Positions 28,063 through 30,018 of a stretch of 43,372 nucleotides of DNA are shown here, piece after piece. The stretch comes from Escherichia phage ZCEC5: sequence record NC_073321.1. One strand, given 5' to 3'. The translations under genes were made by a program, and so were the position numbers. The number at the start of each line of letters is the position of its first letter. Positions within the stretch are counted from its first letter, which is position 1. Under the pieces are notes generated by a model. It searched no databases and was not told the DNA's origin. It was given only the letters and a program-made list of their open reading frames with translations.

Positions 28063-28950
28063 TTAAGCGGCTACTTGCGGGACGATGGCATTGCCATAAC
28101 CGCGCAATCGTCCCACTCTGGCGGGTATCCCATTAGCCAGCGGGAATGTGCCGGGTTCAACTGGCCGGAATTTTCCATCCCGGCAGCCGAGCCAGTCAGC
28201 ATCTGACCAGAAGCCGTTATGCGTATTGGCTCCACGAGGTAGCATTGATTGTGAAGATTGTTCGGGTCTCTTTTTGTTTCCGCCTCGCTGTAACTTCCGT
28301 GACGCGAATTCTGAACCGTCGGTGTCCCCCATGCCGCTTTCAGCCCCTGTTCCGTTGAGTAGTCCAGTCTGTCGAATGTTCTGTCCTTCCCATCCTTGCG
28401 AATCACTGTCTCCCCGCTCCCTTTGTAATCGTTCGCTGTCGGTGTCGGCCAATTCGTGCGCACCAAAGAAGAGTCGTTCTCTTTTGTGCGGAGCGCCGAC
28501 GCTACAAGCTGGGAGTACGGCAAACCCGACGGCGTAGTCTTCTCCTTCCAGGTGAGCTTGTAAATCGCACATCCACGATTTTGCAATTGCTGGTGCAACC
28601 TGTTCCCCAAAGAGGACTGGAGGGCGGCACTCGCTGATGAGGTCGAGGAAAACTGGCGCAAGGTGTCTCGGGTCGAACTGTCCGAGTTGTTTTCCTGCCG
28701 CGCTAAACGGTTGGCAAGGCGGGCTTCCCGTCCAGAGAGGCGTATCTTCCGAAACTCCCGCAAGTCTGAGCGCGAGAGGCCAGCCGCCGATACCAGCGAA
28801 AAAATGACACTGGGTGAACCCGTCGAGGTCTTCTGGCTTAACTTCGGTAATGCTTCTTTCATCTACAACTCCAAAAGGTATGTGGCCCTGTTTTATTAAT
28901 TCACGCAGCCACGCGGCTGCGCCTTTATCCCATTCGTTGTAATAGTTCAT
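28063..28950 (-). CDS. DNA (cytosine-5)-methyltransferase, orphan
   Basis: Motif I FAGIGG, motif IV SPPCQPFS, ENV-like GEQV, HKRER, C-terminal GNAIVPQVA; no adjacent restriction enzyme. Confidence 0.8.
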   Translation of the reverse strand: MNYYNEWDKGAAAWLRELIKQGHIPFGVVDERSITEVKPEDLDGFTQCHFFAGIGGWPLALRLAGVSEDTPLWTGSPPCQPFSAAGKQLGQFDPRHLAPVFLDLISECRPPVLFGEQVAPAIAKSWMCDLQAHLEGEDYAVGFAVLPACSVGAPHKRERLFFGAHELADTDSERLQRERGDSDSQGWEGQNIRQTGLLNGTGAESGMGDTDGSEFASRKLQRGGNKKRPEQSSQSMLPRGANTHNGFWSDADWLGCRDGKFRPVEPGTFPLANGIPARVGRLRGYGNAIVPQVAA

Positions 28951-29477: not shown

Positions 29478-29936
29478 CTATTCTCTCGCCGCGCAGACCA
29501 CTTTGTACGCTTCCTCCTTTGTCGAAAAAGCACCGAGATATATGCGCTTCCCGTTCACGGTTATCCTTGCCCTAAATTTACCTCTTTCAGGCGATACCCC
29601 CTTTAAACATGAGGTGTTGTCGCGCCTTACCCTTGCGTTTCTGGTATTCTCCCACCTGGTCGCTAACCGCAGGTTGCAAATCCGATTATCCGCACGGTCG
29701 CCGTTTATATGGTCAACCTCCTCCGGCGGCATATCACCGTACACCCACCACCAAGCCAATCGGTGTGCCGGATAGTGGACGTTTCTGAACACAACTTTCA
29801 TATATCCAAGGTCAGTGTAGTTATTTATAACTTTCCCCGGAACAGACCGCGGGCCACTTCGCTTAACCCATTTGAATACCCCAGTATCAGGGTCGTACGA
29901 CAGAAAATCTTTTATATCGCCACTTGGTGCTTTCAT
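29478..29936 (-). CDS. HNH homing endonuclease with AP2-like DNA-binding domain
   Basis: DHINGDRADNRICNLR HNH motif; C-terminal AP2-like segment; N-terminal YDPDTGVFKW shared with two paralogs. Confidence 0.7.
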   Translation of the reverse strand: MKAPSGDIKDFLSYDPDTGVFKWVKRSGPRSVPGKVINNYTDLGYMKVVFRNVHYPAHRLAWWWVYGDMPPEEVDHINGDRADNRICNLRLATRWENTRNARVRRDNTSCLKGVSPERGKFRARITVNGKRIYLGAFSTKEEAYKVVCAARE

Positions 29937-30018
29937 AATACACACCCCTCACGTTTCGTGTGTTCAATCCCGCAGCGCGGACAGATTCGACAATCTTCTT
30001 CATAAAACCAGTAAATTT

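Follow-up and report, generated by a model that had tools for sequence, protein, structure and literature searches.

In the C5-cytosine methyltransferases (C5-MTases) M.HhaI and M.HaeIII, the large domain comprises motifs I-VIII together with motif X, and the small domain comprises the target-recognition domain (TRD) and motif IX; every characterised C5-MTase needs both of these small-domain parts (PMC3404938). M.EcoHK31I of E. coli (YGGCCR) is a natural two-polypeptide C5-MTase that needs an alpha as well as a beta chain: the beta coding sequence sits entirely within the alpha gene, in a different frame, and motif IX is found on beta, with motifs I-VIII plus X on alpha (PMC2836561, PMC3404938). 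The first 42 residues of this beta chain are dispensable in vitro (PMC2836561). In M.AquI of Agmenellum quadruplicatum (CYCGRG), a natural split C5-MTase, the break falls within the variable region that separates motif VIII from motif IX, and the beta chain holds the distal variable region together with motifs IX and X (PMC3404938). Beyond methyltransferases, the lambda Rz/Rz1 pair provides a case of one gene lying wholly inside another in the +1 frame, with both products acting in the same process (PMC9409062). Here we describe a DNA methyltransferase gene at 28063-28950, on the minus strand, of Escherichia phage ZCEC5, a K1G-like siphovirus (Kagunavirus); the window analysed is the whole stretch of 43,372 bp deposited as NC_073321.1. 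We consider it probable, at roughly 0.65, that this gene specifies a two-polypeptide C5-MTase from overlapping frames, in which a nested beta chain is the small domain (TRD plus motif IX).

A catalytic frame and a nested +1 frame

The frame annotated in ZCEC5, hereafter frame A, is proposed to encode the alpha chain, and its product matches the entry 'putative DNA methylase [Escherichia phage ZCEC5]' at 100% identity. Its features are as follows.

28063..28950, minus strand: frame A open reading frame (ORF), proposed alpha chain, 295 amino acids plus stop, recognised by PF00145, phrog_363 and identity to the ZCEC5 annotation
28456..28950, minus strand: alpha residues 1-165, catalytic large-domain core, delimited by frame-A conservation and by the HhaI, Pfam, TIGR00675 and Dcm matches
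28927-28944, minus strand: YYNEWD, motif II-like (alpha residues 3-9 read YYNEWDK)
28783-28803, minus strand: FFAGIGG, motif I by signature, alpha residues 50-56
28702-28722, minus strand: PPCQPFS, motif IV, with catalytic C79
28597-28608, minus strand: GEQV, motif VI
28468-28488, minus strand: HKRERLF, motif VIII
28216..28455, minus strand: alpha residues 166-245, the 'low-complexity variable region' of the initial annotation, interpreted here as an out-of-frame linker
28066..28215, minus strand: alpha residues 246-295, conserved block at the C-terminus that closes with the motif X-like sequence and shares its DNA with the last part of the nested frame
28069-28095, minus strand: GNAIVPQVA, motif X-like, alpha residues 286-294

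Frame A matched PF00145 at 59 bits, where the cutoff is 22 (E=6.9e-16; residues 73-164 on profile positions 65-160 of 324), M.HhaI in a PDB search (E=1e-7) and E. coli Dcm by HHalign (E=3e-5), and reached 37.5 bits against TIGR00675, under the cutoff of 100.65. The matches in Pfam, PDB and Dcm were confined to residues ~73-164, spanning motifs IV-VIII; phrog_363 matched frame A over its full length (E=7e-84). PPCQPFS, GEQV and HKRERLF align to M.HhaI residues 77-168 and Dcm residues 176-255 and are invariant in 37 relatives. FFAGIGG is also invariant in relatives and aligns weakly to motif I of HhaI (6.8 bits) and of Dcm (HHalign E=0.016). The motif X-like GYGNAIVPQVAA is invariant in relatives as well, and a Pfam scan of frame A gave no detection of motif X. 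No motif IX was detectable in frame A, and nothing recognisable lies between motifs VIII and X. The initial annotation had placed a C5-MTase at 28063-28950. The ORF (minus strand, 295 residues) exists exactly as stated, the family assignment is borne out by the Pfam and M.HhaI matches, and the catalytic residues are kept on alignment to HhaI and Dcm. Its statement that the conserved motifs were all present holds firmly for IV, VI and VIII and fails for IX; the matches to I and X are weak.

Judged by the positions of its motifs, the N-terminal part of alpha appears to be permuted, in the order II-III-I-IV. FxGxG stands 28 residues before the catalytic Cys and downstream of the motif II-like YYNEWDK segment in 116/119 loci, and alpha residues 1-165 also hold a VVDERSI segment. 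The YYNEWDK region of ZCEC5 is identical at 7/9 residues to 'YSNEWDKYA', which we take to be the corresponding stretch of M.HhaI. The canonical order I-II-III-IV is kept in Lacticaseibacillus phage R9.1 and in contig L168, both of which are nested too.

The initial annotation overlooked a 263-codon ORF in the +1 frame of this gene, hereafter frame B, which takes up 789 of the 888 nucleotides (nt) of the alpha gene and has the following parts.

28071..28862, minus strand: frame B ORF, proposed beta chain, 263 amino acids plus stop, in the +1 frame and nested in the alpha gene
28860..28872, minus strand: putative beta translation start, with GGAG at 28869-28872, a 6-nt spacer ending in a TAG stop, and ATG at 28860-28862
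28638..28862, minus strand: beta residues 1-75, leader over alpha motifs I-V, kept open, amino acids not conserved
28458..28637, minus strand: beta residues 76-135, conserved block SASAALQSSLGNRL..GCAIYKLTWKEKTTPSGLPYSQLVASALRT, overlapping alpha motifs VI-VIII
28188..28457, minus strand: beta residues 136-225, variable region with two W-x-T-P modules, proposed as the real TRD
28428-28451, minus strand: WPTPTAND module, within beta residues 136-225
28308-28331, minus strand: WGTPTVQN module, within beta residues 136-225
28113..28160, minus strand: beta residues 235-250, LNPAHSRWLMGYPPEW, proposed motif IX, with invariant residues across distant phages

Frame B matched phrog_1008 (E=4e-55). PHROGs labels phrog_363 and phrog_1008 both as 'DNA methyltransferase', and JGI likewise labels beta-type proteins DNA methyltransferase. 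The C-terminus of frame B reads '...EWDDCAVMAMPSSRK', and across six very different phages the block 'LNP....WLMG.P..W' is invariant at L, N, P, W, L, M, G, P and W. LNPAHSRWLMGYPPEW resembles the signature by which motif IX is known in canonical enzymes, such as 'RECARVMGYPDSY' in M.HhaI, a resemblance for which Pfam, PDB and HHalign gave no confirmation. The motif IX-like core on beta (28113-28160) adjoins the motif X-like core on alpha (28069-28095), giving the canonical IX-then-X order in separate frames. Two tryptic peptides, TNWPTPTANDYK and LDYSTEQGLK, are predicted to be specific to frame B.

Conservation of both frames across phages

Frame B far exceeds the length expected by chance: when the codons of frame A were shuffled synonymously, 0/200 shuffles reached it (mean under the null 110 codons, longest 232). 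In 83/84 loci obtained by searching with frame A (protein identity 46-100%), a +1 ORF spans 60% or more of frame A (median 89%), and the +2 frame holds just ~50-70 codons. Retrieval with frame B (B identity 31-93%) placed B in the +1 frame of A in all 66 loci containing both parts, and a motif-based census found beta in the +1 frame in 136/136 loci. Sequencing error or a pseudogene as the cause of the two frames is ruled out by this universality of the layout (66/66 and 136/136 loci).

Homologues of frame B number 5,754 proteins in one database and 10,082 representative clusters in another. The nested layout occurs in Salmonella podovirus epsilon15, Vequintavirus HdK5, Rhodobacter phage RcPacific, cyanophage Cr-LKS3 and Lacticaseibacillus phage R9.1, and two metagenomic contigs with the canonical motif order carry it also. 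It spans siphoviruses, podoviruses and myoviruses, with enterobacteria, Rhodobacter, a cyanobacterium and Lacticaseibacillus as hosts. P0424 and P0465 are nested as usual. The +1 ORF is sometimes fused to a downstream gene, encoding Dam in P0255 and DUF2800/PD-(D/E)XK in P0254.

To compare the frames, we drew 600 pairs of loci at random and, for a given stretch of DNA, allowed every frame its own best-scoring local alignment at the protein level; scores are given per codon, with the +2 frame as control.

A codons 1-105: frame A 3.4-3.9, frame B ~1.0, +2 control ~1.2
A codons 105-165: frame A 2.83, frame B 1.92, +2 control 1.32
A codons 166-245: frame A 0.56, frame B 0.87, +2 control 0.56
A codons 246-293: frame A 3.53, frame B 2.59, +2 control 1.87

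Over codons 166-245, frame B outscored frame A in 88% of the 600 pairs. Codon-position variability follows a similar division, the third position of A being the most variable up to codon 165 and the third position of B being the most variable in B codons 136-225. Under beta residues 76-135, whose pattern recurs in epsilon15, HdK5, R9.1, RcPacific and Cr-LKS3, frame-A third-position variability is lowered (0.41-0.48 vs 0.55-0.69 upstream). In the last 50 codons, changes that are non-synonymous in both frames are depleted (5/42 vs ~50% expected). These comparisons show each frame to be under selection in its own segments, and the stop counts given below show both frames to be kept open against expectation.

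The segment between the two conserved parts of alpha can be read in this light. Alpha residues 166-245 are 78% G/S/D/E/R/K/Q/N/T and 14% hydrophobic, compared with 42% and 35% in residues 1-165, and match no Pfam or PDB profile. The initial annotation was accurate in calling this segment polar and low in complexity; its reading of the segment as an unusual TRD of unclear specificity is not supported by the per-frame scores, in which frame A equals the +2 control and the +1 frame stands above both. Because frame A here equals a non-coding frame while the +1 frame is conserved, we interpret residues 166-245 as an out-of-frame read of other coding sequence, a putative linker whose sole need would be to lack stop codons. 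Frame A is stop-free over these codons in 84/84 A-retrieved loci, where 3.2 stops per locus were expected, and in 66/66 of the loci that frame B retrieved independently it runs unbroken as far as motif X. An open frame through the TRD-coding segment is what alpha would need to reach motif X.

At the other end of the nested gene, the first +1-frame ATG falls at frame-A codons 25-39 in 64/84 loci, and a Shine-Dalgarno (SD)-like motif, often GGAG or AGGAG, lies upstream of the +1-frame ATG in 55/84. The leader that follows has a frame-B score of 0.96 against 1.26 for the control. Over A codons 31-165 the +1 frame is nonetheless without stops in 66/84 loci, compared with a per-locus count of 2.8 stops in synonymous shuffles and 5.3 in the +2 frame.

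The number of W-x-T-P modules ranges from 0 to 5 across 120 unique loci, with 2 the commonest. Between close Kagunavirus relatives (L001-L004, L084-L098) the 28188-28457 segment is near-identical or non-homologous, and the TRD-coding segment shows 9 point substitutions in 240 nt vs 41-49 in the flanking segments. Because this segment is either near-identical or non-homologous and its module number varies from 0 to 5, the comparison suggests that recognition modules are exchanged as cassettes between phages.

The two-polypeptide reading and its alternatives

In the enzyme that we propose, alpha (295 amino acids) would provide the large catalytic domain, with motifs II-III-I-IV...VIII, an ~80-residue linker and a ~50-residue block with motif X. 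Beta would be translated separately from its own GGAG-ATG inside the alpha gene and would run from a ~75-residue unconstrained leader through the conserved block and the W-x-T-P variable region to the 'LNP....WLMGYP..W' block. It would then dock onto alpha, forming the DNA-binding cleft; its modules would set the sequence at which phage DNA is methylated, and methylated phage DNA would be protected from host restriction. We propose separate translation and assembly because the split between alpha and beta coincides with the boundary between large and small domains, and because M.EcoHK31I offers a precedent. Independent initiation is favoured because the leader is stop-free though unconserved, the ATG at A codons 25-39 often stands behind an SD-like motif, and frame A is kept open. 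We infer that beta is homologous to the canonical TRD and motif IX, and an anti-restriction or epigenetic role of the methyltransferase is plausible, shielding of phage DNA against host restriction being the likeliest.

Four proteins bearing PF00145 (P0101, P0273, P0389 and P0491) were considered as single-chain relatives and rejected, being local frame swaps or deletions. In P0273 (L156) the alpha core is joined in frame to a beta-type WPTP...LMGYP sequence, both frames breaking at one indel on a single Logan contig. P0101 and P0491 change frame inside the catalytic domain, P0491 (L163/L164) switching at motif VI in two independent assemblies (ENA samples ERZ907639 and ERZ2772632), and P0389 is a deletion. 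A further protein, P0087 (L157), has no PF00145 hit and shows a B-to-A frame swap from an extra G in a G-run ('RKGGG'). The indel frame-swap variants (L156, L157 and L163/L164) could be assembly errors, decaying copies or natural re-fusion experiments. As a natural variant in which the alpha core is fused to beta-type sequence, P0273 would count in favour of two chains that together make one enzyme.

A number of results weigh against the two-polypeptide reading. Pfam gave no match to frame B alone, and splicing A(1-165) to B(136-263), with or without motif X, brought no Pfam gain over native or reversed controls for either ZCEC5 or R9.1. PDB searches with full frame B and with C-terminal block profiles yielded nothing but a WW-domain peptide (E=0.84), and hence no methyltransferase. 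When the frame B family was aligned to E. coli Dcm by HHalign, the best local match paired 'WLMGYP' with motif IV, not motif IX, and HHalign of frame A set alpha 283-295 on the Dcm motif X 'RQFGNSVVVPVFA' only weakly (E=0.29). AlphaFold2 models were unusable both for frame A (37-sequence alignment, predicted local distance difference test (pLDDT) 38.8) and for frame B (52 sequences, pLDDT 47.6). No genuine single-chain bridging relative was found, the long B-like proteins being without PF00145. A synonymous/non-synonymous classification in close relatives had no power, with 9 usable events in the TRD segment; the per-frame alignment test was used instead because sequences there were near-identical or non-homologous. 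Finally, ZCEC5 alpha ends 12 residues earlier than its relatives.

The failure of every profile and structure search to tie frame B to a known methyltransferase domain would be expected if frame B encoded a real but unrelated protein (DNA-binding, regulatory or anti-defence) overprinted on alpha, with alpha working or failing alone. Overprinted viral genes often encode unrelated functions, which also speaks for this explanation. We nevertheless consider it unlikely. Alpha has no conserved sequence where the TRD and motif IX belong, which is just where beta has its conserved parts; LMG[FY]P..W near the end of beta is similar to motif IX; alpha is universally paired with beta across very different phages; and PHROGs and JGI call beta-type proteins DNA methyltransferases. 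M.EcoHK31I is, moreover, a direct precedent for a small-domain chain encoded in this way (PMC2836561).

The early end of ZCEC5 alpha bears on this copy of the gene, whatever the family does. The stop codon TAA at 28063-28065 (minus strand) directly follows '...GNAIVPQVAA', at a position where relatives have GAA and continue 'EFIKAFMGAVNE', and in relatives the end of alpha overlaps the helicase start. From the G of GNA to the end ZCEC5 has 10 residues, the shortest tail of the 120 unique loci, the others having at least 17. The stop reflects a genuine nonsense mutation or else a mistake in the sequencing. Because alpha ends 12 residues early, the ZCEC5 copy may be impaired or decaying through this GAA to TAA change, as the longer tails of its relatives would indicate; we regard this as a slim prospect, given that the catalytic residues and both ORFs are otherwise intact, that motif X itself is kept, and that the change could be a sequencing error.

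Less probable again, in our view, is a programmed +1 frameshift after motif VIII (~28456-28470), which would yield one chain with motifs I-VIII, the TRD and IX and would need no independent start for B. The frame-B conserved region does start exactly where frame-A conservation ends, after HKRERLFFGAH, and P0273 has exactly such a fusion in one frame. This variant is, however, a single Logan contig in which the same indel breaks both frames. A frameshift would have no need of the ~135 codons upstream of the supposed shift site that are stop-free in +1 (66/84 loci, 2.8 stops expected), nor of an ATG behind an SD-like motif at the opening of the +1 frame. It would also leave unexplained why frame A is open through the TRD segment to the conserved motif X block, which the shifted chain would lose. 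The junctions themselves vary by lineage (RLFFGAH, RAYWVAH, RTFIVAH, RLYFGAV), with no conserved slippery site evident, although no formal scan for one was made.

That the single 295-residue polypeptide is the whole enzyme, with its low-complexity middle as an atypical TRD and the +1 ORF as a non-functional by-product of composition, we hold to be very improbable: frame A is indeed one uninterrupted ORF, annotated in ZCEC5 and many relatives and matched end to end by phrog_363, but its residues 166-245 are no more conserved than a non-coding frame, the +1 ORF is longer than in all shuffles and is kept at identities down to 31% in every checked locus, the +2 frame, with 5.3 stops per locus, offers no parallel, and frame B amino-acid conservation exceeds the control in three segments.

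Genomic setting, wider meaning and known systems

DNA of the window matches 479 phage records, chiefly Escherichia and Salmonella Guernseyvirinae. The methyltransferase gene lies in the replication module, flanked by a 63-residue ORF/VRR-NUC-like gene and an SNF2 helicase gene. No restriction endonuclease was found in the gene neighbourhood, where the sole nuclease nearby is a homing-type endonuclease with HNH_3 and AP2 domains, or among the 87 annotated genes of the closest complete relative. On these two grounds we call the enzyme an orphan, and the data support the frame A gene as an orphan C5-cytosine methyltransferase, as had been proposed from the outset. The HNH_3/AP2 ORF (29478-29945, minus strand, 155 amino acids; HNH_3 domain at E=4.6e-15 and a weak AP2) sits two genes upstream of the methyltransferase gene, overlaps the start of the 127-residue VRR-NUC-like ORF by 56 nt, and has the look of a homing endonuclease. 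In ZCEC5 it may have been inserted, because at the corresponding place EcoPhCCP1, the closest relative, annotates just small hypothetical ORFs.

Annotation of the two frames is uneven. ZCEC5 and phiEc3 list only frame A, EcoPhCCP1 and Cr-LKS3 list only frame B, and K1G, K1H and K1ind1 deposit both as overlapping coding sequences ('C-specific methylase' and 'Mte8-like protein'). Pipelines that bar nested genes report one of the two frames, and because they do so, the records of phage 'orphan methyltransferases' may, in thousands of cases, cover half an enzyme or take a meaningless linker for a recognition domain. If frame A were recoded or its codons optimised, frame B would be lost and the enzyme is predicted to be inactive, a hazard that touches methyltransferase characterisation, phage engineering and synthetic genomes. 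Target prediction should likewise draw on the frame B modules, which are apparently swapped as cassettes between close phages.

We give about even odds to the broader proposal that these loci form a large class of obligate heterodimeric phage C5-methyltransferases, with the whole small domain (exchangeable TRD cassettes and motif IX) in the +1 frame inside the large-domain gene, that has gone unrecognised in the searchable literature; no paper describing a nested two-frame methyltransferase layout in phages was found. The proposed class would comprise >10,000 protein clusters and extend over phages that infect Proteobacteria, Firmicutes and cyanobacteria. Two compensating frameshifts in a single-chain ancestor would be its probable origin, as opposed to de novo overprinting. 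If the proposal is true, few overlaps between same-strand genes of double-stranded DNA phages would be longer or more widely conserved. Conserved between phages whose hosts are distant, the ~790 nt that code twice on one strand offer a rich natural case of two frames sharing one sequence.

Among known enzymes, the canonical monomeric C5-MTases share with the ZCEC5 locus a two-domain logic and the PCQ, ENV-like and QxRxR-like motifs seen in M.HhaI, M.HaeIII and E. coli Dcm (PF00145). They differ in being one chain in one frame, as opposed to two frames in ZCEC5, and in having motif I at the N-terminus, ~60 residues before the catalytic Cys; in ZCEC5 the distance is 28 and a motif II/III-like segment lies upstream. 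The Bacillus phages SPR, phi3T and rho11s encode orphan multispecific C5-MTases with tandem exchangeable recognition modules. The 0-5 tandem W-x-T-P cassette-like modules of ZCEC5-type beta are likened to these by architecture, not by TRD sequence, and the Bacillus phage enzymes are single polypeptides. In M.AquI the ORFs are consecutive, with a short overlap. The ZCEC5 beta gene is instead nested almost completely in the alpha gene, and motif X (GNAIVPQVA) stays on alpha, frame B being without it. The lambda Rz/Rz1 pair is also unlike this locus in scale and in product, for Rz1 is short, and the ~790 nt overlap of ZCEC5 would join domains of one enzyme.

The closest likeness is to M.EcoHK31I, and it concerns layout only, by published description. 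In ZCEC5, as there, one ORF (28071-28862) lies in a different frame inside another (28063-28950). ZCEC5 alpha has motifs IV-VIII firmly, with I and X recognised by signature and weak alignment, and the unconstrained ~75-residue leader of ZCEC5 beta is reminiscent of the dispensable N-terminus of the E. coli beta chain. The two also differ: M.EcoHK31I is part of a restriction-modification system and the ZCEC5 gene is an orphan in the replication module of a lytic phage; the N-terminal motif order of ZCEC5 alpha appears permuted; and the TRD of M.EcoHK31I is 'predicted' in alpha, whereas the variable modular region of ZCEC5 is in beta. If the reading of ZCEC5 as a two-polypeptide enzyme is true, that 'predicted TRD in alpha' is worth re-examining. 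The layout itself matches the known M.EcoHK31I kind, and what is notable, and apparently unappreciated, is its breadth.

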